DNA of 64,000 nt from Chloroflexaceae bacterium (GCA_034435975.1 DAOTWD010000003.1:70167-134166), one strand, 5' to 3'. Positions 45,937-64,000 are shown, numbered from the stretch's first letter. Notes: generated by a model from the letters alone, not told the origin. Numbers and translations: made by a program.

Positions 45937-46181
45937 GATGACTCATACTCCGGGCCAGGCCAGGCCTGTCTATAAGAAGCTTGAAAACTGTGTAGACTAT
46001 ACCATATCTAAGAATCCCTGGCAACCCTGTGAATAAAACAGGATGCCTATGCCAACGCGGTTGTGCTACCTGAAGGAAAATATAGACGGACGATCGGGTG
46101 GCAATCTTTGTATGACTGTATACTTTCGACAGAATAAACCGTACTGGTGATGGATATGTTGGATTGTGTGAGGAGTGTGTG

Positions 46182-47033: not shown

Positions 47034-47081
47034 GCATTCTGTATTGGACAGGCTCTGAGAACATAGTGATCTGAAATCCGC

Positions 47082-47189
47082 GTATGCGATCCCGTGAGCA
47101 AATTGTTCCATCAGGCAATCGGTGTTGGGGTTGCATTGGGCGAGAACCGTGGGTATGCAATCCCGTGAGCAAATTGTTACATTAGGCAA
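47082..47189 (+). repeat. 37-bp direct repeat (3 mismatches, 71-nt offset) duplicating the recG start region
   Basis: GTATGCGATCCCGTGAGCAAATTGTTCCATCAGGCAA (47082-47118) versus GTATGCAATCCCGTGAGCAAATTGTTACATTAGGCAA (47153-47189). Confidence 0.9.
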
Positions 47190-49707
47190 AGTGCTGGCCG
47201 AGGAGCAGCGACGTGGCGGCGATGATGGGGCCGTGATCGATGGTTTGGACAGATTCATTGCTGCATGGCGCACCGAGTCCAACAGGGCACGCGAAATACC
47301 GGCGGTGCAACAGGCATTGGCATTGCTGGCAAACTATGCCCACCAGCCCGTTGATACGCGCCAGGTACATCTCGCACAGGCATTGGAGTTGCTTCGTACA
47401 CTTTTCAAGTCGTTGGAAACGACTACGGCAACAGCAAATGCAACCGGTTCATCGCCCCTGCTCCACACCTCCAGGCCGGTATCGCAACCAGATCCAGCGG
47501 GCGTAACTACACCTGAGCTTAGCCTGGATCTACCCGTAGAAAAGGTACCCGGCATCAATCGAAGCGCGGCACAGGCCTTTAAGCGGCTCAAGTTGCACAC
47601 GGTTGGCGATCTGCTGTATCATTTTCCGCATCGTTACGATGATTACACGTCGCAACAGTGCATTGCGAACCTGAGGGTAGGAGCTGTAGAGACGATCGTC
47701 GGCACCGTATGTGCCGTGCGTCCCTTTCGTACCAAAACCGGGCGTGACGGCGTGGAAATTCAGGTGGAAGATTCGAGTGGGCGCTTAAGAGTCGTCTTTT
47801 TTGGCGCACGCTGGCTGGTACAGCAGTTTAAGATCGGGCGAAAGGTGGTATTAAGCGGTAAAGTTACGTCCTATAACGGTATCTGTCAAATGACTGGCCC
47901 CGATTGGGAACCATATACGGCTGATCAACTGATTCATACTGGACGCCTGGTGCCAGTCCATCCATTGACAAAGGGATTACACGAGCGCAATGCTCGCAAA
48001 ATTCTGAAACAGGTTGTTGATCACGCTGCGCCCCTGGTACCGGAGTATTTGCCGCCTGTGGTACGTGAGCGAACAGGATTACTGCCACTGGGGACAGCGA
48101 TTGCGCAGATGCACTTCCCGGATAATCAGGAAATGCTGGCACGGGCACGGGATCGGCTTGGCTTCGATGAGTTTCTGTTTATTCAACTCGGTATCATCCA
48201 ACGACGGCAGCTCTGGCAAGGTGAAATGGGTTATGCATTTACCTGGCACCCTGAGGTTCATGCTGAGCTGCTCCAACAACTCCCGTTCAGGCTTACCGGT
48301 GCCCAGCAGCGAGCGCTAACCGAGATTTTTGCTGATGTACAACGCCCGGTGCCTATGGCACGTTTGCTCCAGGGCGATGTCGGCAGCGGCAAGACCGTCG
48401 TGGCGGCAGCGGTTCTCTTGCAGGCGATTGCCAATGGCTTGCAGGGAGCATTGATGGCACCGACCGAGATCCTGGCCGAGCAGCATTACAAGGGGCTACG
48501 ACAGCTCCTCAGCCGGGTGCGTGTACCGCGCACTGCTCACGCAGATGCTACCAATGCCGATCCTGATTGGAAAGGTACCACCGATGCCGACCATCTGGCA
48601 CGCCTGGATGAGATCAAGCGCTTGCTCGGTATGGTGCCCGAAGATGATCTGGATGGTGCAGGCGTGCGAGTGGCTTTGCTCACCGGTAGTCTGGGAACAA
48701 AGGAGCGGCGGCGTGTGCTTGAGGCGATTGCCAACGGCGATATTGATCTGGTGATCGGTACCCATGCGCTGATTACCGAGAGTGTCCAGTATCACAGCCT
48801 GGGTCTGGTGTGCATCGACGAGCAGCATCGGTTTGGCGTTGAGCAACGCCAGCGTCTGAAACAAAAAGGATTTAACCCACATATGCTGGTGATGACGGCC
48901 ACACCGATTCCACGCACGCTCACATTGACCCTCTATGGCGATCTCGATGTCTCGATACTCGATGAACTGCCGCCAGGTCGACAGGAAATCAAGACACGCT
49001 GGATCACCCGTGCCGAGCGTGACAAGGCCTATCGGCATGTACGGCGCGAAATTGAGAAAGGTCGCCAGGCCTTTGTGATCTGTCCACTGGTAGAAGAGAG
49101 CGAAAAAGTTGATCTACCATCAGCCGAGGAGATGTATACCTATCTGCAACACAGGGTATTTCCTGATCTTCGTATTGGGTTGATCCACGGGCGCTTATTG
49201 CCGCGTGAGAAAGATCTCGTGATGCGCGCCTTCCGTGATCATGAATTTGACATTCTGGTGGCAACTGCTGTGGTCGAGGTGGGTATTGACATACCAAACG
49301 CAACGACGATTATTATCGATGGTGCTGAGCGGTTTGGGTTGGCCCAGTTGCACCAGTTTCGCGGACGAGTTGGACGTGGAAGCCACCAAAGCTACTGTAT
49401 TCTGATTAGCGACCTCGATAACGAAGTGACGCAACAACGGTTAGAAGCCATGGAACTGACACACGACGGCTTCAAACTGGCCGAAATTGACCTGGAACTG
49501 CGTGGCCCCGGCGAGTTTCTGGGCAAACGTCAGAGTGGCACACCTGACCTGAAAGTAGCACGGCTGACCGATATACACCTTCTTCATCGTGCGCAACAGG
49601 AGGCGTGTATGATCCTGGAAGATGATCCGCAACTGGCACGACCAGAGCATGCGCTCCTGCGCACCAGAGTGCGTGAATTCTGGGAGCAGGCAGAAGGAGC
49701 GAGTTAG
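47155..49707 (+). CDS. recG: ATP-dependent DNA helicase RecG with a ~140-aa N-terminal extension
   Basis: Wedge-domain entry (VGDLLYHFPHRYDDY), helicase motif I GDVGSGKTVVAA, DEQHRFGV, TATPIPRTL, and RGRVGRGSHQSYC with a TRG-like end. Start uncertain (47122 or 47155). Confidence 0.9.
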   Translation: MQSREQIVTLGKVLAEEQRRGGDDGAVIDGLDRFIAAWRTESNRAREIPAVQQALALLANYAHQPVDTRQVHLAQALELLRTLFKSLETTTATANATGSSPLLHTSRPVSQPDPAGVTTPELSLDLPVEKVPGINRSAAQAFKRLKLHTVGDLLYHFPHRYDDYTSQQCIANLRVGAVETIVGTVCAVRPFRTKTGRDGVEIQVEDSSGRLRVVFFGARWLVQQFKIGRKVVLSGKVTSYNGICQMTGPDWEPYTADQLIHTGRLVPVHPLTKGLHERNARKILKQVVDHAAPLVPEYLPPVVRERTGLLPLGTAIAQMHFPDNQEMLARARDRLGFDEFLFIQLGIIQRRQLWQGEMGYAFTWHPEVHAELLQQLPFRLTGAQQRALTEIFADVQRPVPMARLLQGDVGSGKTVVAAAVLLQAIANGLQGALMAPTEILAEQHYKGLRQLLSRVRVPRTAHADATNADPDWKGTTDADHLARLDEIKRLLGMVPEDDLDGAGVRVALLTGSLGTKERRRVLEAIANGDIDLVIGTHALITESVQYHSLGLVCIDEQHRFGVEQRQRLKQKGFNPHMLVMTATPIPRTLTLTLYGDLDVSILDELPPGRQEIKTRWITRAERDKAYRHVRREIEKGRQAFVICPLVEESEKVDLPSAEEMYTYLQHRVFPDLRIGLIHGRLLPREKDLVMRAFRDHEFDILVATAVVEVGIDIPNATTIIIDGAERFGLAQLHQFRGRVGRGSHQSYCILISDLDNEVTQQRLEAMELTHDGFKLAEIDLELRGPGEFLGKRQSGTPDLKVARLTDIHLLHRAQQEACMILEDDPQLARPEHALLRTRVREFWEQAEGAS

Positions 49708-50142
49708 GATATGACACGTGGATAGGCTCTGGCTTGGGTACCATGGTCTCCATATTCCCTATGACGAAGTGGTCGCTATACTCTTTTATCGCTCGGTACT
49801 CGATACCCAGATTGTACGTACCTATGGCCGTGTACCAACCGGTGTATGTTCTGTGGTGGTGACCGTGTGCGGCCAATATTTGCCCGCGCGCTGGCATACG
49901 GAACAGTTGCGGCAGCGTTGGACACGCTGGCGTCTCAGTCAGGGCGAGTAAGGCTGCTTGATCAGGACTGACACGGCTGCTCAAACAACATGATATACCT
50001 GCAGCAGCACGGTACTTCGTTGTTGTTCTCTCCCAATATTCGCCGAAAGCGAACATCTGGAGAGAACGAAAGCGTTTTATGGCTACAGGTGAAAAAGATG
50101 TGGTGGCGCAACAAGTGCGTCAGTCTTGCATAGAAGACGGTT

Positions 50143-50616
50143 ATGGCAAAATATGAAATCACGGCTGTCACCATCATTCAAGCCGAGCCAGCCGATGTCT
50201 GGGCAGTTCTCGATAATTTTAGGAACTGGCCCGATTGGATGCCAGCAATGCAGAATCTCCAGGTGGAGTTACTGACACCGGGCCAGATCAAGCCGGGATA
50301 TCGCTTCCGTCTGCGTAATAAACTGGTACATGCCGACCTGGAAGTCACCACCTGCACCAGGCTGGAGCGGGCCACCCGGTTTCGCCTGAACCTGCCACCA
50401 TTGACCGGGGCCAATCAGTGTGTGCTGACGCCGCTGGAACACGGTGGGTATCGATTGGAACGCAAGGACTGGATTAACCTGCCTGGCCCGATCGCCACGT
50501 TTCTGAATGCTACCCAGCGCCAGCGATTGGAACAACTGGCTGCCGACTTTCTCTTATCACTGAAACGCACAGTAGAACAGCGAGGAAGCTTTGCTCAATC
50601 AGCAGCAACGGACTGA
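50143..50616 (+). CDS. SRPBCC (START/polyketide-cyclase-like) superfamily protein
   Basis: The N-terminus MAKYEITAVTIIQAEPADVWAVLDNFRNWPDWMP is typical of SRPBCC ligand-binding proteins. Confidence 0.7.
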   Translation: MAKYEITAVTIIQAEPADVWAVLDNFRNWPDWMPAMQNLQVELLTPGQIKPGYRFRLRNKLVHADLEVTTCTRLERATRFRLNLPPLTGANQCVLTPLEHGGYRLERKDWINLPGPIATFLNATQRQRLEQLAADFLLSLKRTVEQRGSFAQSAATD

Positions 50617-50839
50617 AACCTTACAACGTCTGGCGGCGATCATCAGGCAGAGCGGCATGCGAGTGCCAGTTGGAATTGCTCTGGATATAGTCCAACCATT
50701 TACTGTCCTTAGTAGTCAGGTCGCCCTATTTTGTCAGCCATTTACGATGGGTAGTAGTTTTGAACGTTATGTGCTGGTTCTGGCGGATGAGGCAAGTTGG
50801 GACGAATTACGTCGCTATTTAGGCCGTCCAGAATGTTGA
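50591..50839 (+). CDS. small hypothetical protein (weak call)
   Basis: 82-codon ORF overlapping the SRPBCC gene end by 26 nt. No recognisable motif or strong RBS. Kept only because of its position upstream of the 51060 operon. Confidence 0.3.
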   Translation: MLNQQQRTETLQRLAAIIRQSGMRVPVGIALDIVQPFTVLSSQVALFCQPFTMGSSFERYVLVLADEASWDELRRYLGRPEC

Positions 50840-50864
50840 CAAAGCCAGTTTTTTGCGTTACACT
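50836..50864 (+). promoter_or_regulatory. sigma-70-like promoter candidate TTGACA-17 nt-TACACT upstream of the five-gene operon
   Basis: TTGACA at 50836-50841 and TACACT at 50859-50864 with a 17-nt spacer, 196 nt before the ATG at 51060. Confidence 0.4.
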
Positions 50865-51059: not shown

Positions 51060-51857
51060 ATGCCTCTCCGTGGTCTCCCCGAAGAAACAATACTTGTCCT
51101 GATTGTTGCCCTGATTGTATTTATACTGACCGTATGGTATGACACCCGTATTCGTGCTGGTCATCGGCCATTCCGGCGACCACTCGCGGCGTTCGAGGTC
51201 ATCAGGGCTGCTCTTGGGCGTGGTGCAGAAACTGGTCGTGTGATACATCTCTCGCCTGGTGCCGGTACGGTGGGTAATCGTGCGACCACGGCTGAAACAG
51301 TAGCCGGGTTACTGGCGGCCGAGCGTATTGCCACTGAAGCGGCGTTCAACGGGGCGGCGATACTGGTCAGCAGCGGTGATGCCGTATCGCATCTAGCTCT
51401 CCGCGGCATTGTGCGCCAGGCCTATTATCGCGCAGGGCAAAGCCCGATCTTCAACGCAGCCAGTGTCCAATTGCTGGCCCATCAAGATTCGATGGCCTAC
51501 GCTGCTGGCGTTTCTGCACTCTATGCGCGCCAACGGTTGGAAGCCAGCCAGTTGATCGGCAGTCTGGGTCAGGAACTCCTCCTGGTGGGGGAAACCGGGG
51601 CGCAACATGATCTACCACAAATGATGGGGACGACCACACCTGCTGGTCTGCCGCTGATGTTCCTGAGTACACGTTCGGTATTGATTGGCGAAGAGGTGTT
51701 CGCCGCCGATGCGTATCTTGCAGCCGTGCCTGGCCCCCAGGCACGGTTGATGACCCAGGATTTCTTGCGCATGATTCTGATCCTGGTAGTTGTGCTGGGT
51801 ATCATCTACAGTCTGCTCCAGCCTGTTGTCGGGTTGCCACCATTACCAGGGATCTAA
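51060..51857 (+). CDS. bitopic membrane protein of unknown function (operon gene 1)
   Basis: The ATG at 51060 follows AGGAG. N-terminal TM (ILVLIVALIVFILTVWY) and C-terminal TM (MILILVVVLGIIYSLL) flank a ~200-aa Ala/Gly-rich domain. No family recognised. Confidence 0.7.
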   Translation: MPLRGLPEETILVLIVALIVFILTVWYDTRIRAGHRPFRRPLAAFEVIRAALGRGAETGRVIHLSPGAGTVGNRATTAETVAGLLAAERIATEAAFNGAAILVSSGDAVSHLALRGIVRQAYYRAGQSPIFNAASVQLLAHQDSMAYAAGVSALYARQRLEASQLIGSLGQELLLVGETGAQHDLPQMMGTTTPAGLPLMFLSTRSVLIGEEVFAADAYLAAVPGPQARLMTQDFLRMILILVVVLGIIYSLLQPVVGLPPLPGI

Positions 51858-51872
51858 CTGAGAAGGTGTTTG

Positions 51873-52514
51873 ATGTCTTTCGTGCGTGATCCAAAGCGCC
51901 TGATTGCAACTTTGATCGCGGGAGTGGTCGGTGCGATTGTGCTGGTAGATTTTGCGAGCGCAACCCTGACGGTCGGTCGGGTAGCGCGGTTGCTGGTCGG
52001 CTGGGCAGCAACCCTGACAGCACTGGCACTCCTGGTAGGGGTGATCAGTGTTACTCTTGCACACTTGCGGCGTGTCCTGACACGTGATGCGGATTGGGGC
52101 TATAGCCTGGTACTAGTGATGGGCATGCTAGGAGTGATAGTGGTCGGGGTTGCTGGTGCCCCTGGTTTAAATCTAGCTGAAGAACCAATTCGCCGGGTCT
52201 TTCGTGCGGTCTATGAACCCCTGGCGAGTAGCCTGCTGGCGCTCCTGGCGTTCTTCAGCTTAAGCGCAATTCTCAGGGTGTTCCGTGAACGTCATCCCCC
52301 GGCAGTGGTGATTGTGATGGTAGCTCTTCTGGTATTGATTATGCAATTACCACCTGTCCAAACACTGCCGTTTGTGTCTGAATCTTTGCAGTGGTTTAGT
52401 GATTATATTACCCTGGCTGGTACACGCGGCCTACTTCTGGGTAGCGCTATTGGCACTCTGGTTGCCAGTGTACGTGTTTTGTTGGGATTCGATCAACCCT
52501 ATCTTGATCGTTAG
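51873..52514 (+). CDS. polytopic membrane protein of unknown function (operon gene 2)
   Basis: 213 aa, 5-6 hydrophobic segments. Starts 13 nt after the gene 1 stop. Confidence 0.7.
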   Translation: MSFVRDPKRLIATLIAGVVGAIVLVDFASATLTVGRVARLLVGWAATLTALALLVGVISVTLAHLRRVLTRDADWGYSLVLVMGMLGVIVVGVAGAPGLNLAEEPIRRVFRAVYEPLASSLLALLAFFSLSAILRVFRERHPPAVVIVMVALLVLIMQLPPVQTLPFVSESLQWFSDYITLAGTRGLLLGSAIGTLVASVRVLLGFDQPYLDR

Positions 52515-52537
52515 TTATTGTAAGCTGTCTAGTGTTG

Positions 52538-52572
52538 AGACTATGGGCAAAGGCTGTGTTTGCCCATAGTCT
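52538..52572 (+). other. perfect 14-bp stem / 7-nt loop hairpin between operon genes 2 and 3
   Basis: AGACTATGGGCAAA (52538-52551) and TTTGCCCATAGTCT (52559-52572) are exact reverse complements. No U-tract follows. Confidence 0.5.
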
Positions 52573-52587
52573 ACGCCAGCAAAAAAT

Positions 52588-55500
52588 GTGATGGATCAAA
52601 AATCACGCCCATCGCCTGTACATACGAACGAAGATCAGCATCTGCCACCCTGGTTGCAAGGCGTCCCACTCCCGCCATGCCCACCTTCACGGCAGGCGCC
52701 GGTTGTGGACGCGGGCTTGAGTCTGACCTCGTCGCGCCCGATCGTGGCGGATACGGCGGTAGATCCTACAATACCTGACTGGTTGCGCGATCTGCAAAGT
52801 GAAGTTGGGGATATTGAAGACGAGCCAGGTGGGAGTGATGACGAACCAGACTGGCTCGCCAGTCTGGCGGCTGATGAGGTACTGCGTGTACCGGATGAGG
52901 CGGCGGATTTTCCTGCTGCGCCTCAGTCTGATCGTGTCACCGATCTGCCTGACTGGTTGCGAACGGATGCGAGCCCTGTTCGAGATGACATATCTGCCCG
53001 ATCTAGCAGTGATGACCTGCCCGACTGGTTACGAAGCGACGTGAGTTCGGCTCCAGACAATACACCTGCCAGTACGGCTAGTACTGATCTGCCCGACTGG
53101 TTACGAGGCGATGCGAGTTCTGCTCGACCAGAAACACTGGCCATGGCCAGCAGGGATGACTTGCCGGATTGGCTTCAATCAACACCCGCAGAATCGGCAA
53201 CCCCATCCGATCCTTTTCCATCACCATCGGCATCAGCGGATGAGCAGACAACACCACGGGTGCGTATGCCTGTTGGGGCAACTGATTGGCTGCGTAGCCT
53301 GGGAGAGGAATCAGATACCGACCAGGATCGGCCAGATACAGCCGAAGGGCCAATTGTTGAAGGGTTGCCTGAACAGGGCATTCCTGACTGGTTGCGTGAT
53401 GTTTCTCCAGACGAACTGGCCCGCGATATTGCCACTGCAGAGCCAGAACGACCGGTATACGATCTGCAACAACATGCTGATTCCTCTCCAGACCCTGTTC
53501 AAGCATCAGACTGGCTAGTCGAATCGGCAACGGCACTGTCGTCAATGGCACAGTCACCAGATTCAGATGCATGGGTTGAACCAGCGCTACCGGACTGGTT
53601 GCGTGATGTAAGCCTGGAGGAGCTGGAGCATGATATTGCAGCGGTGCAGTCTGATCTACCGGCACCACCACCTGTGTTGCCAGATGTGGAACCAGGATTA
53701 CCCGATTGGCTGCGCGATGTATCTCTCACAACCGATGAGGGCGATCCAGGGATAGCAGACAGCCCTGCTGCCCCGGTTGGTAGTCGGGATAGGCGATCTG
53801 CAGAACCGCCAGGCTGGCTGCTGACACCATCTGATGCGCAATCACCTGACTCGCCTGCGTCTGTTCCTGCATGGCTACTAGATGTGTCAGCGAGCCAATC
53901 TGAATCTGCTGTCCCTGAATGGTTACAGTCAACACCGACGGCCCGATCTGAAGCAGATGATTCACCACCTGCTTCAGATATTCCACCGTGGTTACAACGT
54001 GTTGAGCCTGAAGATGATCGCGATGCATCGGGATCAACACCGATTGCGGATTCGCCAGCAGCGCCACTCGGCAGTAAGGTGCCAGAGTGGTTACAGTCAT
54101 CTGATGTGGTACCATCTGTACCAGATCATCTGTCAGCAGGAGATGAGCATCAAGCGGCATTGCCTGAATGGTTACGTGGCAATGCACATGATGAATCGTT
54201 CTCAACTCAGGCGAAGCATACCGGTGTTGAGCCATCAGGAGTGTTGCCCGCCTGGTTGATAGATAATGCAGATCCTGAATCAGGTTCGTCTTTTCCAGGA
54301 AAAGCCCCTGATGAAACGATACCGGAGTGGTTACGTGCGGATCAATTATCAGTCAGTGAATCGGCAGAGAACCTGCCTGAATGGATGCGTAGTGATACAT
54401 CAACGGTAGAGTCTGGGGTGGCTCACGTTGATCCAACGATGCCTGACACATCTGATACGGATGTACCCTCCTGGTTGCGGGAAGAACCAGGAGGGCTGGC
54501 TTCCTCCGCTCCCCCTGGTATCGCTGATCTGCCACCGTGGATGATCGATGATGCGGACAGTCCTATACCGTCAGCAACAGCGGCGGGCGACAGCGGGTTA
54601 CCGGAATGGTTACGTGGTGCTGATGCAGATCCTAAAGTGCCTGCCTCACCTGCCACTTCGCCTATCGATGATGTTTCTGTCCCTGAGGATGTTGAGGATG
54701 TTCCATCCTGGTTAGCCACTGATGGGGCTGATGCAGATATTCCACCGTGGCTTCAACCCGAGACATCAACCACCGAACCGCCCGTGATAGCCGAAGCTCA
54801 GGGTGTAGCGCAACCGTCTTCCGGCGAGACCAGTGACTTTTTCGAGAGTATCGATCTACCTGACTGGTTACGCGAATCTGAGAATAAGGCCACGATCCAA
54901 TCTGGAGTATCGCGTGATATAGGCTGGTTGTCACGGTTGGGTGTCCAGGATGAAGCTAGTGATAGCGTAGCCATTGCGGCGGCACCGGTTCCCACAGTGT
55001 TGGAACCACCCACGTTTACGCGTAGCCCGGCCCGAGTCGAAGCAACCGCTTTGCTGCAGCGGCTAGCACAGCATCCTTTTCCAGAAGTAGCGCCGGTGAC
55101 AACTATGCCCAGGCCATCGCTCTGGCAGCGTATTGGTGTTGAACGGATACTCTATATTCTGCTGGCGTTGGCATTGCTGTTCAGTGTGATCATGCCCTCC
55201 ATTACGGCCTTCCTGGGAGCAACCAGTCCTACAACACCCGAAATTGCCCGGCTCGTGTCTACTATTGATCAGTTGACCGAAAATGATATAGCACTGGTGG
55301 CCTATGAATGGAATGCCCAACGTAGCGGTGAACTGCGTCCACTAGAACAGGCGTTGATCCAACATCTAATGGATCATCAAGTGCGTATGGTGGTACTCAG
55401 TACCAATCCGCAAGGTACCTTGCTCTCGTTTGATCTGCGTGACACCTTGCAAGCCGGAGGTTATCAAGGTCGCGGGTTCGACTATGTTTTGCTAGGATAT

Positions 55501-55992
55501 CGGCCGGGTGGCGAAATGGCACTGCGCAGTATGGCTCAGAATTTCTATGAGACGCTGCAATCAGATTTCCAGGGATTGGATGCGACTCGCGGTGGTCTGG
55601 CCATTGACCCTGATACACGTGAGTGGTTTTTGAATACGCTCGCGGATCTGTCGTTGATTGTGGTTATGGCTGACCAGCCACAGGACGTGCAGGGGTGGAT
55701 CGAACAGATTCATACCAGCGTAGAAGATGTGCCGCTTGTCTTCCTATTACCGTTCGAAACGGCTCCTGTGGTGCAACCCTACCTACGCGATCCGCAAGTC
55801 TTTCAACTGGTAGGGAAGCAAGATGCGATTTATTATCAAGCTATGCGTACCAACGACCAGCACAACATAACAATGACCTATGCCAGTGGTCAGCAACATT
55901 TTGCGGTACTGGTGTTTGTGATTCTGGTTTTCGTTGGGGGTATGGTCAGTGTCTTGCTGCATTCCAGACCTTCGAGGGGGAACAACACATGA
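52588..55992 (+). CDS. 1134-aa acidic protein: ~830-aa cytoplasmic low-complexity region with about 28 P-x-W-L motifs, then TM - ~280-aa domain - TM (operon gene 3)
   Basis: Motifs read from the translation: LPDWLRD/S/G/T, IPDWLRD, VPEWLQS, LPEWLRG, IPPWLQR and others. No signal peptide. TM ILYILLALALLFSVIMPSI and terminal TM FAVLVFVILVFVGGMVSVLL. Confidence 0.8.
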   Translation: MMDQKSRPSPVHTNEDQHLPPWLQGVPLPPCPPSRQAPVVDAGLSLTSSRPIVADTAVDPTIPDWLRDLQSEVGDIEDEPGGSDDEPDWLASLAADEVLRVPDEAADFPAAPQSDRVTDLPDWLRTDASPVRDDISARSSSDDLPDWLRSDVSSAPDNTPASTASTDLPDWLRGDASSARPETLAMASRDDLPDWLQSTPAESATPSDPFPSPSASADEQTTPRVRMPVGATDWLRSLGEESDTDQDRPDTAEGPIVEGLPEQGIPDWLRDVSPDELARDIATAEPERPVYDLQQHADSSPDPVQASDWLVESATALSSMAQSPDSDAWVEPALPDWLRDVSLEELEHDIAAVQSDLPAPPPVLPDVEPGLPDWLRDVSLTTDEGDPGIADSPAAPVGSRDRRSAEPPGWLLTPSDAQSPDSPASVPAWLLDVSASQSESAVPEWLQSTPTARSEADDSPPASDIPPWLQRVEPEDDRDASGSTPIADSPAAPLGSKVPEWLQSSDVVPSVPDHLSAGDEHQAALPEWLRGNAHDESFSTQAKHTGVEPSGVLPAWLIDNADPESGSSFPGKAPDETIPEWLRADQLSVSESAENLPEWMRSDTSTVESGVAHVDPTMPDTSDTDVPSWLREEPGGLASSAPPGIADLPPWMIDDADSPIPSATAAGDSGLPEWLRGADADPKVPASPATSPIDDVSVPEDVEDVPSWLATDGADADIPPWLQPETSTTEPPVIAEAQGVAQPSSGETSDFFESIDLPDWLRESENKATIQSGVSRDIGWLSRLGVQDEASDSVAIAAAPVPTVLEPPTFTRSPARVEATALLQRLAQHPFPEVAPVTTMPRPSLWQRIGVERILYILLALALLFSVIMPSITAFLGATSPTTPEIARLVSTIDQLTENDIALVAYEWNAQRSGELRPLEQALIQHLMDHQVRMVVLSTNPQGTLLSFDLRDTLQAGGYQGRGFDYVLLGYRPGGEMALRSMAQNFYETLQSDFQGLDATRGGLAIDPDTREWFLNTLADLSLIVVMADQPQDVQGWIEQIHTSVEDVPLVFLLPFETAPVVQPYLRDPQVFQLVGKQDAIYYQAMRTNDQHNITMTYASGQQHFAVLVFVILVFVGGMVSVLLHSRPSRGNNT

Positions 55993-56630
55993 TCGAGATG
56001 ATCATCAAAATTGCAGGTGTTGTGTTGACCCTGTGTGTATTGAGTCGCATGATCTGGGTGCATAACAATCCCCTGTTTCGCTTTGCGCAATACCTGTTTG
56101 TTGGTGTCTCACTGGGGTATGCATGCGTTGTTTTCTATCATCAAGTACTCTGGCCAGCCGTGTCTCGGGTATCAAGTAATCTTAATAACACGGGAATAGT
56201 AGGATTCTACCTGGTACCGTTTCTCCTGGGATTGTTGCTTCTACCGCGCATTGCCGGTCAGCAACAATGGTCATGGTTGGCAAATATTCCACTGGCACTC
56301 CTGTTTGGGGTCGGAACTGCGCTGGCGCTGGGCGGTGTGTTAGTCGGAACGCTGCTCCCCCAGGTATTGGATACAATACGGGGTACTGATGGTTCCCTCG
56401 CGCAGGTATTGGGATCAGTATTCCTGGCTATCGGGGTTATGCTAACCTTGAGTTACTTTTTCTTTACAGTTCCCTCTGATAGCGGTGCAGGGCGTTTTCT
56501 TGCAGTAAACGCCCGCGCTGGCTACTGGTTATTGATGGTGGCCTTTGGGTTCTTTTTTGCCGGAGCACTACGTACCTATCTGGCAGCATTGATCGAACGG
56601 TTACATTATCTTATTGATTGGAACGTATAA
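55989..56630 (+). CDS. polytopic membrane protein of unknown function (operon gene 4)
   Basis: The ATG at 55989 overlaps the gene 3 stop (ATGA). 213 aa, about 6 TM segments. The tracked longer ORF (from 55695) overlaps gene 3 and is rejected. Confidence 0.7.
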   Translation: MIEMIIKIAGVVLTLCVLSRMIWVHNNPLFRFAQYLFVGVSLGYACVVFYHQVLWPAVSRVSSNLNNTGIVGFYLVPFLLGLLLLPRIAGQQQWSWLANIPLALLFGVGTALALGGVLVGTLLPQVLDTIRGTDGSLAQVLGSVFLAIGVMLTLSYFFFTVPSDSGAGRFLAVNARAGYWLLMVAFGFFFAGALRTYLAALIERLHYLIDWNV

Positions 56631-56692
56631 CCGCTCGCTATCAGGAATGCGATGGGCCTGCCGTGCAGGTTCTTCCGCTTACCCACAGAAGA

Positions 56693-59164
56693 ATGACCGA
56701 TTCTTCGCCTATCTATGACAAAAAGATGATGCCTGACACGCTCTGTTCTATACTTGTTGCCGAGATTGGCAGTCTCACCACCCGCGTTACCCTCGTAGAT
56801 GAGGTTGATGGTGAGCGCCGTATGATTGGCCGCGCTGAGGTGTTTAGCAGTATCGAGCCACCGCATCAGCATGCATTTATGGCGGTGCTGGAGGGGGCTG
56901 TGCAAATAGCTCAGGCGACTGGTCGGCAGTTATTACATGAAGGTCAGTTACTGATGCCCCAGAACCGAGAGCGCGATGGCATTGATCACGTTGTTTTTGT
57001 CAGCAGTGCTGCTGGTGATCTGGCTCTGGTGATTACCGCTATTGCCGGCGATGTCTCAGCCCGTAGTGCCCTCCATGCCAGTCGTTGCACCTATACCAGT
57101 CTGCTCCAGATCGTAACGCTTGATGATGCGATGATGCGCGTCAGTGGTGATGGGAGCACTTCATGGATTGTACGGCAGATCCAATCCATGCTGGCAAAAA
57201 GTCCAGATGTCATATTGATGGCAGGTGGTCTGGAAGGTGGTGCTACAGAGGCGCTAGGACGCCTGGCGCATATTGTTGGCTTGACGAATTTGCGGACGGC
57301 TGTCGATACCAGTGGTCAACAGCGTCAGGATGTGTCCCCCCGCCCGGTTCTTTTTGCCGGCAATAGTGCTGCCAGTGGGCACGTGACGGAAGTACTGGCC
57401 GGTCGAGCGGAAATACTTATTGTCGATAATGTTCGCCCAACCCTGGACATAGAGCGGTTAGAACCAGCCCGTCAGGAAATCATACGGTTATACGATGAAC
57501 GAATTCTGAATCGGTTGCCAGGGATACCAACATTGCGGCGACTCAGTAGTACAAGTGTACCGATCACCACCGTGTGTAACGTTGAGGGGCTGATCACACG
57601 GTTTGTGGCCGAGCAATATGAACGCCAGGTGCTAACATTGGATGTCGGCTCAGCCAGTAGTAGTGCGTTTCTTGCTAGCCCGGGACATTATCATCCCGTG
57701 GTGCTGGGAAATTGTGGCACGGGTTATGGCTTGACCACGCTTTTGAAAGAACGGGGTATTCCTAATATTGCTCGCTGGCTCCCTTTCCCGATCACCGAGG
57801 AGGAACTTACTCAGTGGTTGCTGAATAAACTGTTGCGCCCCCACCTGATACCAACTTCTCGTGAGGATGTGTATATTGAACAGGCCGTTACGCGTGAGGC
57901 CCTAACGCTCGTGTTAGATGCGCTGCGTGATGAATGCCCGACACCAGAGTATGATCTGGTGTTCGCCGGCGGAGGTGTCCTCTCTCATGTGCCCCATCCC
58001 GGCATGGCTGTCTTGATGTTGCTTGATGTGCTCCCGGCTGTAGCGCAAAACACTCTGGCGCTGGATCTCCATCTTGATACCTTTAGTCTCCTGTCAGTCT
58101 GCGGTGCGCTGGCGCGGTTTGATCCGGATGCTGCAGTGACAGTTTTTGAACGTGATCTATGGCACAATACTCCGCTGGCAACCTGTGTGGTACTTGCTGG
58201 CGAGGGGTCATCTGATACCGTGGCAGTTGAGGCAGAACTGGTAAGCCGTGGCCGATCGCAGCACGTAGCGGTGCGACATGGACAGGTCGCCCGATTACGG
58301 CTCGATCCGGGTAATCGAGGACAACTGATACTCCGCCCGGCACCAGGTGTGCATATTGGGCACAACGAGCCGGGCGCAGAGGTGCGCTCGGATCTGGCAG
58401 CACTGAAGGGTAGTGTCCTGGGTATTATTATTGATGCCCGTGGCCGTCCGTTGCAGTTACCGATTGATGAGACACGCCGCTGTGCGCAGATCTGGGAGTG
58501 GCTGGTAGCATTGGGAGTGGAATATGATCAAAGTCCCTATGTTAATATGCCATTGTCAATCCCAGAGGTTATTGATGTTGACCATAATGTAGATACACCA
58601 GCCACTGATATAGAACGTGATCGTTCCACCCAGACGTCTAAAGCAACGCGGCGGTGGTGGGGCAGACGGGGTAGAACTCCAGATACTGCTGCTGTACCAC
58701 CGGAACCGTCTATCGCAACACCGGCAACCAGCACGGAGCCGTCAGGGCCATTGACCGAGGTACCGCTCGCAGGAGTGCAAGCAGAGCAGGTAGCGGGCAG
58801 CGGCATGCCAGTGGTTCCTGATGTGGCTGTGATCCAGAGTGATCCCGTTAGTACGGTCGAATCGGTACCGGCCCCAGATGCACCGGCGGTACAGGCGATC
58901 AAGCCCGGTTCACGCATTTCCCTGAGCGACCTGGCCGCCCGGAGCGAAGACCTGCCAGCAACTCCCAGATCGCCCGCACTCAAGCCCGGTTCACGCATTT
59001 CCTTGAGCGACCTGGCCGCCCAGGAACTGACGCAGTCATCAGAGTCAGTATCTCCCTCCGGTTCAGATGAACACGAACCAGATGCCATTCAAAGCGATCT
59101 GGCAAAACTACGCCAGTCGGTTTCCGCCCCCAGGAAGGGTGGCTGGTTTGGACGTAAGAAATAG
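56693..59164 (+). CDS. GlmL/MutL-family (ASKHA, actin-fold) ATPase-like protein with a disordered Pro/Ala/Ser-rich tail (operon gene 5)
   Basis: N-terminal phosphate-1-like ILVAEIGSLTTRVTLVD and the VFVSSAAGDLAL segment resemble the GlmL (glutamate mutase accessory) family as I recall it. The tail has a duplicated KPGSRISLSDLAA and ends KGGWFGRKK. Start uncertain (56618 or 56693). Confidence 0.6.
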   Translation: MTDSSPIYDKKMMPDTLCSILVAEIGSLTTRVTLVDEVDGERRMIGRAEVFSSIEPPHQHAFMAVLEGAVQIAQATGRQLLHEGQLLMPQNRERDGIDHVVFVSSAAGDLALVITAIAGDVSARSALHASRCTYTSLLQIVTLDDAMMRVSGDGSTSWIVRQIQSMLAKSPDVILMAGGLEGGATEALGRLAHIVGLTNLRTAVDTSGQQRQDVSPRPVLFAGNSAASGHVTEVLAGRAEILIVDNVRPTLDIERLEPARQEIIRLYDERILNRLPGIPTLRRLSSTSVPITTVCNVEGLITRFVAEQYERQVLTLDVGSASSSAFLASPGHYHPVVLGNCGTGYGLTTLLKERGIPNIARWLPFPITEEELTQWLLNKLLRPHLIPTSREDVYIEQAVTREALTLVLDALRDECPTPEYDLVFAGGGVLSHVPHPGMAVLMLLDVLPAVAQNTLALDLHLDTFSLLSVCGALARFDPDAAVTVFERDLWHNTPLATCVVLAGEGSSDTVAVEAELVSRGRSQHVAVRHGQVARLRLDPGNRGQLILRPAPGVHIGHNEPGAEVRSDLAALKGSVLGIIIDARGRPLQLPIDETRRCAQIWEWLVALGVEYDQSPYVNMPLSIPEVIDVDHNVDTPATDIERDRSTQTSKATRRWWGRRGRTPDTAAVPPEPSIATPATSTEPSGPLTEVPLAGVQAEQVAGSGMPVVPDVAVIQSDPVSTVESVPAPDAPAVQAIKPGSRISLSDLAARSEDLPATPRSPALKPGSRISLSDLAAQELTQSSESVSPSGSDEHEPDAIQSDLAKLRQSVSAPRKGGWFGRKK
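58899..59021 (+). repeat. 42-bp direct repeat (1 mismatch) with 81-bp (27-codon) period inside the tail of operon gene 5
   Basis: TCAAGCCCGGTTCACGCATTTCC[C/T]TGAGCGACCTGGCCGCCC at 58899-58940 and 58980-59021. Confidence 0.9.
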
Positions 59165-59228: not shown

Positions 59229-59927
59229 TCAGTCACCAACAATATACCGGGCTTTGATCACTTCCTGTAGTCGTCTCCGCTTGTCCGCTGGTTTTGCCTC
59301 CACCCATTGTTCGATCTGTAGCGTCTCATTTGCCAGTTCATCATCCCGGATAACATAGCGGAACCAGTTGCTATAATCGCCTTGCTGCAAATGGTACAGC
59401 CAGGTCGCATCGTCCACTTCATCACTATACTGAATGAAACTGGTGAGCGAGTTTGCCATCAAGTCGTACCACCCGTTTGGCCCGCGAAAGTAAAAGCCAT
59501 AGGCTGGCTCAACCGGGGCTATATCATGTTTACGGGCTGAACTGGTTGTTGCGTCAGGTATCGCTAGACCATTATTGCTGCTCGGATGAGCAGACTGGCT
59601 ATGGGGGTCAGTTATAGCTGGCGACGACCGGGCAGGATGTGGGGGAGGCACCTGGGGCACTTCATCCATACTGTTCCGGGTTGATGGGAATGGGGGATAA
59701 TCATGAACCGATCGCTGATTGGGTATGCCCAGCAGACTCTGAAAGAAGGATGTACTGGTTTGTACCAGATCGGCTATCGAACGAAGGCTATGCGTGGCCA
59801 GACGCATATTCATCACCGTTATCTGCTGCCAGAAATCATATCCGGTGATCATCGCAACTTCGGCCATCTTGATCGATAGGTAAATCTGGTCGCGCAGGTG
59901 CTGCTCCATCGCTTGATTCTGCATCAT
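59229..59927 (-). CDS. hypothetical protein with a C-terminal DUF5752-like domain
   Basis: FYFRGPNGWYDLMANSLTSFIQYSDEVDDATWLYHLQQGDYSNWFRYVIRDDELANETL resembles, from memory, the DUF5752 pattern (F.F...G..A.sL.eF...H..rGDFs.W....gD.eLA). The N-terminal helical part and the P/S-rich linker are unassigned. Confidence 0.5.
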   Translation of the reverse strand: MMQNQAMEQHLRDQIYLSIKMAEVAMITGYDFWQQITVMNMRLATHSLRSIADLVQTSTSFFQSLLGIPNQRSVHDYPPFPSTRNSMDEVPQVPPPHPARSSPAITDPHSQSAHPSSNNGLAIPDATTSSARKHDIAPVEPAYGFYFRGPNGWYDLMANSLTSFIQYSDEVDDATWLYHLQQGDYSNWFRYVIRDDELANETLQIEQWVEAKPADKRRRLQEVIKARYIVGD

Positions 59928-59944: not shown

Positions 59945-60646
59945 TTACTCCTCGCTGATGGCAATTGTGAGAATCGGTTCGCCTGGCTCTACAGCCGTGT
60001 TCGGATCACGTGGCGGAATGCCATCCACAATGTCCTGGCCTTCAATCACTTCACCGAAGATCGTATACTGGTTGTCAAGCCAGCGTGCTGGCCCGGTTGT
60101 AATGAAAAACTGCGACCCACCACTGTCTGGATCACTTGAGCGAGCCATTGCAAGCAGACCGGGACGATCAAAGCGGATTTTGCTGGTAAACTCAGCAGGA
60201 ATGCTATAGCCTGGCCCACCCATACCCGTGCCGGTCGGATCGCCTGCCTGGGCCATAAAACCTTCAATCACGCGATGCCAGGTGACACCGTCATAGAACC
60301 CTTCGCGAGCGAGAAACACAAAGTTATTCACGGTTTGCGGTGCGATATCTGGCAACAATCGCACCCGAATGTCGCCGCGTGGCGTAACAATAGTCGCAAC
60401 ATAGGTATGGGCAGGATTGATCAACATAGGCGGTGGCGCGCTATATTGACGTTGGCCAGAAGAAGGCGGGGGTACTGCCTCAGCCTGGAGACTATTGCTA
60501 CCATCACTACGGGTGGGCAACTCAGTACGATTGATGAGTATGACAGCCAGTACAATAAAAATAGCGAACACAACAAGTTTGGAAATAGTACCGAGAATGG
60601 TATTTGATGCCTCAGCGGTTCTGGGTGTACGTTTGGTTTGACTCAC
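59945..60646 (-). CDS. membrane-anchored cyclophilin-type peptidyl-prolyl cis-trans isomerase
   Basis: N-terminal TM (LVVFAIFIVLAVILI). Cyclophilin core: FYDGVTWHRVIEGFMAQAGDPTGTGMGGPGYSIPAEF and GGSQFFIT. Confidence 0.9.
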   Translation of the reverse strand: MSQTKRTPRTAEASNTILGTISKLVVFAIFIVLAVILINRTELPTRSDGSNSLQAEAVPPPSSGQRQYSAPPPMLINPAHTYVATIVTPRGDIRVRLLPDIAPQTVNNFVFLAREGFYDGVTWHRVIEGFMAQAGDPTGTGMGGPGYSIPAEFTSKIRFDRPGLLAMARSSDPDSGGSQFFITTGPARWLDNQYTIFGEVIEGQDIVDGIPPRDPNTAVEPGEPILTIAISEE

Positions 60647-61005: not shown

Positions 61006-61887
61006 TCATGTTATGTTGAAGCTGTCCGGTGAGGGGACAAAACCATAGGCGGCAAGCACGGTGCTAACGCCACGTAAAGGGGTTTGCAACAAGCTTTGGG
61101 CTAAACGGATGTCAAGGGTGCAGTTGCGTGGCCGTCGTTCGGCATAGGCAGTACTGAAACCACCTTGTAGGCGTGCAGGATCATAGCCATACGCCCGGGC
61201 CAGATGTGTCCCAAACTCAAAGCGACTCATCGGTTCAGCACCGGCCACATGCAGCACACCCTGGTAGTTATTCCGGGCTAACTCCAGCAAGGCCAGGGCC
61301 AGGTCAACAACAAAAATTGGACAACGATATTCATCATGAAACAATTGCCCTTGCAGCGTTCCCTGCACCAGATTCAACACGAACTGTGTATGCCGATCCA
61401 GAGGTTCAAAGCCATATGTAAGCGACGTGCGAACAATAACCGCTGAGGGACACACCGCCTGAACACACTGCTCGGCATACGCCTTGGCCCGGCCATAAGC
61501 CGTAATCGGATTGGGAGGATCATGTTCAGTGTAGGCATCGCTACGCTCACCGTCAAAAATAACGTCGCTTGACAGATGAATCAATCGTGCCCCTAGCTGT
61601 TGAACCACAGTCGCTACCTGGCATGCACCCGTGGCAGTCACTGCCCACAAATTGGGATCATGCTGTCGAAATGCCGTGTGAATAACAACATCAGGCTGAA
61701 ATGTACCCAGAACCTGCTCCACGGATGCAACGTCACATACATCAAGCGCAAACCAGCGCGTGGGTGTATCACCTGGCGGGGCCTGACGGAAATAGCTGGC
61801 CGCCACCTGCCAGTCCTGTGCTGCTGCGAGGCGGATAAGCGTTCGACCAAGATAACCTGTCCCACCGGTAATAAAAAGACGTTGCAT
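61006..61887 (-). CDS. NAD(P)-dependent sugar epimerase/reductase, RmlD-like (SDR family)
   Basis: MQRLFITGGTGYLGRTL Rossmann motif and the catalytic YGRAKAYAE (YxxxK). Confidence 0.75.
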   Translation of the reverse strand: MQRLFITGGTGYLGRTLIRLAAAQDWQVAASYFRQAPPGDTPTRWFALDVCDVASVEQVLGTFQPDVVIHTAFRQHDPNLWAVTATGACQVATVVQQLGARLIHLSSDVIFDGERSDAYTEHDPPNPITAYGRAKAYAEQCVQAVCPSAVIVRTSLTYGFEPLDRHTQFVLNLVQGTLQGQLFHDEYRCPIFVVDLALALLELARNNYQGVLHVAGAEPMSRFEFGTHLARAYGYDPARLQGGFSTAYAERRPRNCTLDIRLAQSLLQTPLRGVSTVLAAYGFVPSPDSFNIT

Positions 61888-61911
61888 ATGGTTTGCCAGG
61901 ATAGCCGTGTG

Positions 61912-62613
61912 TCATTGTTCTGGCGGTTTATTCATTGCTTCTAACGCCATCTGCGCGGCGCGTTGGGCGGCTGCCTGTTTACTCGAACCACTGCCGAGGC
62001 CGAGAAGCTCCTGACCGACCAGAACTTCAACCGTAAATTGCCGACAGTGGTCGGGGCCAGTTGCGCTAACGGTACGATAGACCGGGGTCATGCCATAGCG
62101 TGCCTGTACGTGTTCCTGCAACCGGGTACGATAGTCAATCTCGGCATTGCCTGCCAGGATGAGGGCCACTTCACGTTCAAGAAAAGGCAAGATAAACGAA
62201 CGAGCCGTATCCAGGCCTTGATCGAGATAAATAGCACCTACCACTGCCTCGAACACATCCGCGAGTAACGGCGCACGATCCCGAGCCGCACTGGTATCCT
62301 CGCCCCGACTGATACGAATGAACCTCCCAAGCTGCAACTCACGCGCAAAGCGGGCCAGGGTGGTCGTTTTGACCAGCGCTGCACGTAACGCCGTCAACTC
62401 GCCTTCACCACGTTCTGGAAAGCGTGCATATAACCATGCCGCCGTGAGAAAATTCAGAATCGCATCACCGAGAAATTCTAACCGTTCGTTGGACGATAAT
62501 CCAGGAACGCGTTCGGGATGTTCATGCAGAAACGAGCGATGGATCAGCGCATTCTCAAGCAAGCGCTGGTCGGTAAAGGTAACACCCAGAGTTTTCATCA
62601 AGACCGAGATCAT
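61912..62613 (-). CDS. rnc: ribonuclease III
   Basis: NERLEFLGDAIL signature and a C-terminal dsRBD (GPDHCRQFTVEV...GSGSSKQAAAQRAA). Confidence 0.95.
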   Translation of the reverse strand: MISVLMKTLGVTFTDQRLLENALIHRSFLHEHPERVPGLSSNERLEFLGDAILNFLTAAWLYARFPERGEGELTALRAALVKTTTLARFARELQLGRFIRISRGEDTSAARDRAPLLADVFEAVVGAIYLDQGLDTARSFILPFLEREVALILAGNAEIDYRTRLQEHVQARYGMTPVYRTVSATGPDHCRQFTVEVLVGQELLGLGSGSSKQAAAQRAAQMALEAMNKPPEQ

Positions 62614-62670
62614 AGCGTTGCGTATCGGGCTGGTGGCTTGCGATGGTCGTTGATGGCGGCCATGTCATTG

Positions 62671-63912: not shown

Positions 63913-64000
63913 GCCCAGCGCCTCCTTCAACCATAACGCTTGTTCGCGCACATTATACCATGGCCTTCTGGTCATGCCTGGTGCGGGGATCGCCGTGTAT

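Follow-up and report, generated by a model that had tools for sequence, protein, structure and literature searches.

The window described here, a stretch of 64,000 nucleotides from a Chloroflexaceae bacterium (GCA_034435975.1, DAOTWD010000003.1:70167-134166), carries on its + strand a compact gene cluster that is the Chloroflexales form of a widespread, uncharacterised system made of two modules. The first module is a set of four integral membrane proteins encoded in a fixed order, namely A (g1), B (g2), C (the core of g3, referred to as g3C) and D (g4). The second is soluble or peripheral and comprises a small protein, c5, and g5, a predicted ATPase of the GlmL family, to which a further protein, c6, is added in most lineages other than Chloroflexales. 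Of these seven families, one is a domain of unknown function (DUF) and another lies in a branch of the actin superfamily for which only a role as accessory of B12-dependent enzymes is known; neither Pfam nor NCBIfam has a model for the other five.

We rate this system as lying outside every known kind because, the DUF6754 and MutL models apart, it finds no match in Pfam (2025), NCBIfam (2026), PADLOC, the PDB (2026) or the open-access literature subset, and it is a well-supported candidate for an undescribed system. An earlier, sequence-only reading of the same DNA knew of no characterised pathway that combines these parts, and the sensitive searches made since then (Pfam, NCBIfam, PADLOC, profiles against the PDB and, for g1 and g3C, Foldseek) have likewise led to none. 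Regarding the literature, DUF6754, PF13941 and strings of the LPDWL or PDWLR type in a bacterial context returned no publications in the open-access subset. Our overall reading, to which we assign a probability of about 0.45, is that the cluster encodes a transmembrane complex operated by an ATPase, with the single mechanistic steps held at a much lower level.

Conservation of the Gene Order

The survey on which this view is based started from an alignment of 11 g1 sequences, from which a degenerate pattern was derived and scanned against one genome per GTDB species, and at least 591 genomes were found to contain a confirmed g1 relative. The best 80 loci among the matches listed were examined with flanks of 10 kb, and homologues were sought among their six-frame open reading frames (ORFs) by single-sequence phmmer with the window proteins. 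In this way, g2 homologues were found directly after g1 in 83 loci, g3C after g2 in 70, g4 directly after g3C in 69, and g5 in 28.

Among the 63 informative loci, i.e., those with enough sequence downstream of g1, the order g1-g2-g3C-g4 is exact in 55, and 69 modules were counted in total. Most of the eight exceptions are accounted for by apparent frameshifts, by a gap of the right size, by a g3 that is too divergent, or by a giant g3 that runs off the end of the locus (L073), and in one of them, L085, g1 alone was found. The Chloroflexota loci come from Chloroflexales, Herpetosiphonaceae, Anaerolineae, Caldilineaceae, Promineifilaceae and Ardenticatenales; others come from WOR-3, Stahlbacteria, Zixibacteria, Cloacimonadota, Eisenbacteria, Fermentibacteria/Aegiribacteria, Ignavibacteriales, Poribacteria, Coatesbacteria and Edwardsbacteria; and Bacillota, including Symbiobacterium, are also present. 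In Oscillochloris trichoides DG-6 and in Kouleothrix the genes encode, in this order, a DUF6754 protein, proteins of ∼220, 985–1221 and ∼215 amino acids (aa), and a MutL protein, and the flanking genes differ. Neighbourhood conservation, which the sequence-only reading had put forward as a check on its proposal, is thus found for all five genes in these two genera and for g1 to g4 across phyla.

The whole four-gene module occurs in two or three tandem copies in several loci of Zixibacteria and Ignavibacteriales, the g1 ectodomains differing among them. Tandem triples are seen in L030, L065, L067, L068, L083 and L084, inverted pairs in L051 and L066, and the ATPase block is present in at most one or two copies in the visible parts of the loci with multiplied modules. 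As for g5, it is the gene immediately after g4 in all Chloroflexota loci that extend far enough; of the 63 informative loci, 21 have it within 10 kb, and it is found a few kb away in loci that were assigned to Clostridia, Symbiobacterium, Zixibacteria, Ignavibacteriales and Coatesbacteria. When all the other ORFs of the 80 loci were clustered, only c5 and c6 recurred besides g1 to g5.

The Gene Cluster in the Window

In the window, the ORF list contains five consecutive + strand ORFs between 51060 and 59164, separated by gaps of 12 or 15, 73, −4 and 62 nucleotides (nt): g1 (51060–51857, 265 aa), g2 (51870–52514, 214 aa from a TTG at 51870 or 213 aa from the ATG at 51873), g3 (52588–55992, 1134 aa, an acidic repeat region followed by the membrane-anchored core), g4 (55989–56630, 213 aa, its ATGA start overlapping the stop codon of g3) and g5 (56693–59164, 823 aa from the ATG at 56693, in a frame open from 56618). 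Homologues of each of the five occur in other phyla, which shows that they are real genes and not ORFs arisen by chance. Upstream of them lies an 82-aa ORF (50591–50839, +), which matches a hidden Markov model (HMM) built from 13 c5 homologues from outside the window with E = 1.3e-8 (5.8e-10 against the window alone). It therefore belongs to the c5 family and makes the unit one of six genes. At its other end the unit stops at 59164, since the next gene, at 59229–59927, is convergent. The genes of the cluster are probably co-transcribed, as judged from spacing and strand. Between c5 and g1, a consensus scan placed a promoter-like site at 50836–50864 (+), with TTGACA and TACACT separated by a 17-nt spacer and 10 of 12 consensus positions matched; the count of such sites in the region does not exceed the shuffle expectation, which makes it weak evidence. 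The window is essentially identical to one contig of assembly GCA_053493935.1, and its g5 is identical to a protein of that assembly.

Several statements of the sequence-only reading can be compared with this inventory. The five + strand genes and their gaps are as it described them, as are the second 213-aa polytopic protein (g4, on which ORF and hydropathy agree), the giant acidic protein with PxWL repeats, the actin-fold N-terminus of g5 of GlmL/MutL type, and the disordered tail of g5 with its basic end. The unit, instead, has six genes and not five, as the 82-aa ORF had been overlooked. Its three membrane proteins, g1, g2 and g4, are membrane-embedded, but g3 is a membrane protein too. 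Finally, its remark that no membrane gene falls into a nameable family stands for g2, g3C and g4, but not for g1, which matches the uncharacterised family DUF6754.

The Membrane Module

Protein g1 belongs to DUF6754 (PF20539), matching profile positions 10–249 of 257 with E = 2e-38 and 132.3 bits, i.e., above the Pfam gathering cut-off of 27 and across the domain; relatives from outside Chloroflexota score 370–417 bits, and the family has no known function. An exhaustive HMMER search with g1 returned 1403 clusters at 50% identity (E ≤ 1e-3). Hydropathy indicates two transmembrane (TM) segments that enclose a Rossmann-like alpha/beta domain of ∼200 aa, and the AlphaFold2 model (mean predicted local distance difference test, pLDDT, 87.4; predicted template-modelling score, pTM, 0.78) has the same layout, with a doubly wound domain between two TM helices. 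Invariant or nearly invariant residues are E57, H63, G67, G167, G210-E211-E212, Y219 and D234, and the first beta strand leads into a Gly-rich loop and then a helix (HLSPGAGTVG). Against the PDB, Foldseek gave no match with E < 1e-3 for this model, only generic Rossmann hits with template-modelling scores (TM-scores) of 0.2–0.35.

The distribution of charges, a heuristic indicator, supports a cytoplasmic location for the DUF6754 domain with the N-terminus facing outward: averaged over the family, the 30 residues flanking the domain contain 6.7 K+R, against 1.1 and 0.5 at the termini. This agrees with the signal peptides that open the N-terminal extensions of g1 in other phyla. Indeed, many relatives are longer and carry a signal peptide and an ectodomain before the first TM segment, with DUF6754 at the C-terminus. 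Among the ectodomains in these phyla there are fn3 and BamB-like beta-propeller regions, while many belong to no family that can be recognised. The idea that these long DUF6754 proteins are fusions comparable to g3 was rejected, as they combine a signal peptide with an ectodomain and contain no PxWL motifs.

In g3, an acidic protein with an isoelectric point (pI) of 4.05, hydrophobic segments at residues 848–880 and 1098–1128 flank a domain of ∼215 aa. This g3C core (55129–55971, +; ∼280 aa here, 270–330 aa in the homologues) consists of TM1 (55129–55227), the alpha/beta domain (55228–55878) and TM2 (55879–55971). In the alignment of the family, E85 and G246 are invariant and a GAAEYE motif is conserved. 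The AlphaFold2 model (mean pLDDT 91.3, pTM 0.83) has a doubly wound Rossmann-like domain between two TM helices, and its Foldseek comparison with the PDB returned a best E of 1.5e-3, with TM-scores of ∼0.2–0.3 and no match with E < 1e-3. Here the same heuristic charge bias supports the opposite arrangement to that of g1, with both termini cytoplasmic and the alpha/beta domain extracytoplasmic, in agreement with the zinc ribbon and acidic arm found on the N-terminal side in Chloroflexota and with the lack of a signal peptide there.

Proteins g2 and g4 have about six hydrophobic segments each. The residues conserved in g2 are P117, R186, G195 and the motif LAF..ASA..RAFRAR; those of g4 are DNP after TM1, Q125 and YFFFS..H.G. 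Neither g2, g3 and g4 nor their homologues from other phyla match any Pfam or NCBIfam family. Profile searches against PDB sequences gave nothing significant for the g2 and g4 families, nor for those of g1, g3C and c6, and nor did phmmer with g5. Moreover, 30 members each of g2 and g4 gave no consistent match to any transporter family, and the conserved residues of g1, g2, g3C and g4 form no recognisable catalytic or ion-coupling signature.

By profile-profile comparison the four membrane families are mutually unrelated. Paralogy of g2 with g4, and of g1 with g3C, was considered and dropped, as neither BLASTP nor hhalign run on the family alignments detected a relationship (probabilities of 0.4–4.3%); by inspection, the folds predicted for g1 and g3C resemble each other.

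The Soluble Module

The N-terminal part of g5 (56750–58159, +) covers all 450 positions of the Pfam MutL profile (PF13941) with E = 1e-55 and 189.7 bits, against a cut-off of 27, and contains both strings on which the first assignment to the GlmL/MutL type had relied, ILVAEIGSLTTRV and SSAAGDLAL. It is followed by a conserved beta-rich C-terminal region of ∼100 residues, by a disordered tail that begins at about 58556, and by a terminal peptide. Homologues are found in Oscillochloris, Kouleothrix, Roseiflexaceae and other Chloroflexales. Across 26 homologues the ASKHA motifs are conserved, namely phosphate-1 (..GS.TT..), phosphate-2 (D.G.a) and adenosine (GGvL.haP), and in the g5 of the window the first position, usually D, is E. 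These nucleotide-binding motifs indicate that g5 is probably an ASKHA ATPase. In Pfam it matches none of MreB_Mbl, FtsA and PilM_2, and one homologue has a sub-threshold match to MreB-like_C (E = 0.07).

Many P, S and A residues occur in the last ∼200 positions of g5, which terminate in RKGGWFGRKK. The conserved C-terminal peptide (59087–59161, +; IQSDLAKLRQSVSAPRKGGWFGRKK) follows the pattern (S/N)DLAKLRQ(S/T)VE.PK(K/R)RG(W/L/F)F(G/R)RKK, which is kept in ∼45 Chloroflexales orthologues despite a variable linker, and two homologues from Bacillota end in RGLFARLFGRK and DGLLARFRR. A globular domain, a linker and a basic, aromatic end is the layout typical of membrane-targeting sequences such as those of FtsA and MinD, and by analogy the end of g5 may serve this purpose. 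The tail also contains an exact duplication of 13 residues (KPGSRISLSDLAA), encoded at 58901–58939 and 58982–59020 (+), and motifs of the S-[LIV]-[SAT]-[DE]-L type occur zero to three times in the tails of g5 orthologues.

Small proteins of the c5 family (80–125 aa) were found in 19 of the 63 informative loci and consist of an N-terminal helix and a conserved hydrophobic stretch, V/P-x-x-I-x-L-D/E-x-x-x-P-F/L-x-x-L/I-S/G-S-Q; they match no Pfam family. In Chloroflexota the next gene after c5 is g1, and in Zixibacteria, Coatesbacteria and others it is g5. The other partner, c6, is a soluble protein of 375–390 aa with a barrel-sandwich hybrid domain similar to RnfC_N/NqrA_N and a KOW-like C-terminus; the similarity is weak (E = 3e-7 to 2e-3), with one of three proteins above the Pfam cut-off. 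It directly follows g5 in 15 loci and is not beside g5 in Chloroflexales. Where they occur together, c5, g5 and c6 form a tight block of abutting or overlapping genes, duplicated in Symbiobacterium. The PADLOC models of anti-phage defence matched none of c5, g1, g2, g3C, g4, g5 and c6.

The Repeat Arm of g3 and Its Resemblance to the FtsZ Tail

Residues 20–760 of g3 contain 25 P.W[LMV] motifs, and four further W[LMV] sites fall within residues 234–781. Motif counts and composition place the array at 52639–54942 (+), and 5000 composition-preserving shuffles of the region yielded 0.61 ± 0.77 motifs with a maximum of 4. The region is acidic, proline-rich and probably disordered. A search for tandem repeats at the DNA level found none beneath the array, from which we conclude that the PxWL repeats are old and diverged. 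The logo of 250 sites from 12 Chloroflexota orthologues reads [DE][DE]-[LVI]-P(84%)-x-W(100%)-L(95%)-[R 54%/Q/S]-[DE], and the motifs lie at a median distance of 25 residues across orthologues.

Each Chloroflexales orthologue of g3 has 15–30 P.W[LMVI] motifs, while the other orders of Chloroflexota have the same acidic repeats behind one or two N-terminal zinc ribbons, and in all other phyla g3 is the core of 270–330 aa alone. By a strict count of [LIVA]P.W[LM] over 85 loci, no protein besides the g3 of Chloroflexota carries such motifs. Being confined in this way, the array is a lineage-specific cytoplasmic addition and not part of the core; what the sequence-only reading took for a multivalent cytoplasmic scaffold is thus an extra feature of Chloroflexota. 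A juxtamembrane motif of g3C, F/L-x-E-R/K-L-x-x-I/L-D-R-R, was considered as the ancestor of the PxWL repeats, and the resemblance is too weak to claim.

The annotation of a near-identical public genome calls g3 as a protein of 1095 aa, against the 1134-aa frame used here; the annotated start is probably too far downstream, because the longer frame (start at 52588 or 52591) holds an N-terminal motif, HLPPWLQGVPLPP (HLPPWL(R/Q)xVPLPP, encoded within 52588–52705, +), that is conserved in Chloroflexales orthologues. Among the public orthologues (P0413–P0493), many Chloroflexales records are marked "partial", and the family seems to be systematically truncated in databases, because contigs apparently break inside the repeat-coding region. 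In a locus of Ardenticatenales (L073, 11355–20696), g2 is followed by a 682-aa ORF with zinc ribbons and then by another ORF, which holds 20 PxWL-type motifs and is already at least 2430 aa long where the locus ends, so that the arm of g3 can exceed 3000 residues.

The repeats resemble the C-terminal peptide of FtsZ (D-I-P-x-F-L-R), which docks on FtsA, ZipA, MinC, ZapD and SlmA: the g3 consensus core, [LVI]-P-x-W-L-R after acidic residues, mirrors it and is conserved at the positions that correspond to the critical I374 and L378. In Escherichia coli, the FtsZ peptide is DYLDIPAFLRKQAD, with the tail LDIPAFLRK (PMC4117426). That of Oscillochloris, DDLDIPPFLRNRNRGK (LDIPPFLRN), was read in the corrected frame of a frameshifted draft gene: the called ftsZ of O. 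trichoides DG-6 (L001, 2600–3931) ends in an Arg/His-rich nonsense tail, and the other frame gives a canonical one, as a frameshift in the draft assembly would explain. In Chloroflexales, the first motif of g3 reads HLPPWLR(N/D)VPLPP, so that LPPWLRN differs from the IPPFLRN of Oscillochloris FtsZ only by L/I and W/F changes. On a BLOSUM-weighted profile of 215 motif instances from nine Chloroflexales orthologues, the FtsZ tails score 15.0 (Oscillochloris) and 14.5 (E. coli), above the 5th percentile of the true motifs (11.7), and such scores are reached by a fraction of 2.3–2.7e-4 of 361,216 background windows. In addition, g5, the linked partner of g3, has the same fold class as FtsA. Unlike FtsZ, a tubulin homologue with a single C-terminal copy, g3 carries 15–30 internal copies on a membrane protein.

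Proposed Mechanism and Alternative Explanations

In the mechanism that we propose, A to D would assemble into one complex of ∼16 TM segments with an alpha/beta domain at either membrane face, and the ATPase g5 would dock on the cytoplasmic one, held at the membrane in Chloroflexales and in some Bacillota by its basic-aromatic C-terminal peptide. Binding and hydrolysis of ATP by g5 might then drive or gate a conformational change that is relayed to the outer face, and a system working in this manner would be associated with the envelope, as a transducer or a platform for assembly, and not a metabolic enzyme. Subunit C would, in Chloroflexota, have gained a long, disordered, acidic cytoplasmic arm with 15–30 copies of [DE][LVI]-P-x-W-L-R, possibly a multivalent docking array of the kind of the FtsZ C-terminal peptide, which could concentrate an actin-fold partner, either g5 itself or FtsA, at the complex. 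A more ambitious proposal goes further and sees here an unrecognised class of envelope machines in Chloroflexota, the candidate phyla of the FCB group and some Bacillota, in which the GlmL-branch ATPase with c5 and c6 operates the complex, the ectodomains of DUF6754 proteins reach into the envelope outside Chloroflexota, and mimics of the FtsZ tail wire the complex of Chloroflexota to the division machinery or cytoskeleton; taken as a whole, we regard this proposal as rather doubtful.

A number of points speak against the picture of an ATPase-driven complex or against its extensions. About two thirds of the loci outside Chloroflexota have no g5 within 10 kb, and for this reason the link to the ATPase is perhaps not universal, or g5 lies elsewhere in those genomes. 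The topology assignments are heuristic, and g2 and g4 have neither conserved acidic TM residues nor a catalytic signature, so that no route for energy or signals across the membrane is indicated. The comparison with FtsZ is post hoc, because the resemblance was noticed first and scored afterwards; every PxWL motif has W where FtsZ has F; and ftsQ-ftsA-ftsZ lie upstream of the cluster in one genome only, that of Oscillochloris trichoides. Furthermore, the GlmL family has been grouped with those enzymes and chaperones in the actin superfamily that do not polymerise (PMC5597319). A cytoskeletal role for g5 has no support, and because of that grouping we do not claim a filament.

The main competitor of the ATPase-driven complex is a solute or ion transporter, in which g2 and g4 would be permeases, the g3C domain would bind the substrate, g1 would be a nucleotide-binding regulator of the RCK/TrkA-N type, and g5 would act in regulation only. 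Two proteins of about six TM segments with one alpha/beta domain per membrane side would suit such a design, as would the Gly-rich loop of g1, and tandem paralogous modules could mean different substrates. The Foldseek hits of highest probability (0.9–0.99) even include MthK RCK, TrkA-N and KefC, but these matches are not significant (E of 4e-3 or worse, TM-scores of 0.24–0.35) and are typical of generic Rossmann similarity. The members of g2 and g4 fall into no consistent transporter family and match no transporter of the PDB, searches for riboswitches and RNA families in the window region and seven loci gave nothing significant, no substrate-related neighbour gene was found in the window region and the loci searched, and ectodomains of fn3 or beta-propeller type, as well as an ASKHA ATPase with a barrel-sandwich partner, would be unusual accessories. 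On balance we consider a transporter unlikely, though far ahead of the explanations that follow. One of these is a distant analogue or homologue of the redox-driven ion pumps Rnf/Nqr, with g2 and g4 in place of RnfA/E, g3C of RnfG/NqrC, g1 of RnfB/NqrF and c6 of NqrA/RnfC. The number of subunits, their sizes and topologies run parallel, and c6 has its weak RnfC_N/NqrA_N hits and a barrel-sandwich hybrid domain like NqrA and RnfC. Nonetheless, none of 60 g2 and g4 members matches the Rnf-Nqr family and the two are unrelated to each other, g1 to g4 contain no conserved cysteines, flavin-attachment motifs or other cofactor-binding residues, and c6 has no PDB relative in profile searches and is missing from the loci of Chloroflexales and from the window. 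By family membership and by cofactor residues a pump of this kind is excluded, and as an explanation in general it is highly improbable.

The GlmL affiliation of g5 raises the question of whether it is simply a true GlmL/MutL, the accessory or reactivator of a B12-dependent mutase, with the membrane genes as unrelated neighbours. The Pfam match covers the full MutL domain, the ASKHA motifs are shared with the glutamate and ornithine mutase accessories (PF13941, TIGR01319), and NCBI annotation names g5 homologues "glutamate mutase L". Against the curated NCBIfam models, though, g5 reaches only 55.6 bits for accessory_GlmL (NF040745, cut-off 475), 67.9 for ornith_Or-4 (NF040744, cut-off 600) and 47.8 for glmL_fam (TIGR01319, cut-off 204), and a homologue of the Symbiobacterium type remains below as well (227.8 against 475; 171 against 204). 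In the window's genome, Oscillochloris and Kouleothrix, the genes called within 10 kb include no Pfam family of B12-dependent mutase subunits (glmS/glmE or oraS/oraE) or of B12-binding proteins. Unlike GlmL proper, g5 has an additional conserved C-terminal region and tail that fall outside the ∼450-aa GlmL models, with a long linker and a basic-aromatic peptide in Chloroflexales and some Bacillota. Its recurrent neighbours across the 80 loci are the membrane module, c5 and c6 (c6 not in Chloroflexales) and no others. An ordinary GlmL is therefore effectively excluded. Even less probable is that the genes are neighbours by chance and do not work together. In its favour, the arguments for co-transcription in the window are spacing and strand only, and a promoter-like site separates c5 from g1, but it is contradicted by an order fixed over many phyla with unrelated flanks, by tandem duplication of the whole unit, and by overlapping stop and start codons.

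Genes Flanking the Cluster

Immediately downstream of the cluster, and convergent with g5, lies the 232-aa ORF at 59229–59927 (−), which matches no Pfam family, has homologues only in the closest relatives (L004–L006), and seems not to belong to the system. It is followed by a cyclophilin-type peptidyl-prolyl isomerase with an N-terminal hydrophobic segment (59945–60646, −), also convergent with g5. A gene of this type is found downstream of g5 in several other Chloroflexales (L001, L006, L010, L011 and L013), which may reflect plain synteny or a loose functional link. The window also encodes DegV, RecG and an SRPBCC/polyketide-cyclase-like protein upstream (46164–50616, +), and an RmlD-like epimerase, RNase III and a ketoacyl-ACP synthase downstream (61006–63975, −). 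Both flanks are ordinary housekeeping genes without an evident link to the cluster, and ftsZ, ftsA and c6 are all absent from the 64-kb window.

Relation to Known Systems and Significance

Among the known machines of the bacterial envelope, MreB-MreC-MreD-RodZ and PilM-PilN-PilO follow a similar logic, in that a cytoplasmic actin-fold protein bearing a membrane-targeting peptide is combined with small polytopic membrane proteins and with bitopic ones whose domains lie on either side of the membrane. They differ from the present system in that no sequence or structural homology to them was detected and the branch of g5 is not known to polymerise.

The gene set described here keeps its order in hundreds of species from at least a dozen phyla. 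Where genes are conserved so strictly and whole modules are duplicated, they usually encode a multi-subunit complex that has an important role in the cell. This role may lie in the cell envelope of Chloroflexota and of the candidate phyla of the FCB group, organisms whose envelope, division and gliding are poorly understood. The repeat array of g3, in which a short motif similar to the FtsZ tail is present in 15–30 copies beside an actin-fold protein, offers a handle that can be tested. If the reading as an envelope machine is true, it would give the GlmL branch of the actin superfamily its first cellular role outside the maintenance of B12-dependent enzymes. Resolving the system would also provide names for thousands of genes now listed as "hypothetical" and correct the widespread label "glutamate mutase L" on the homologues of g5.

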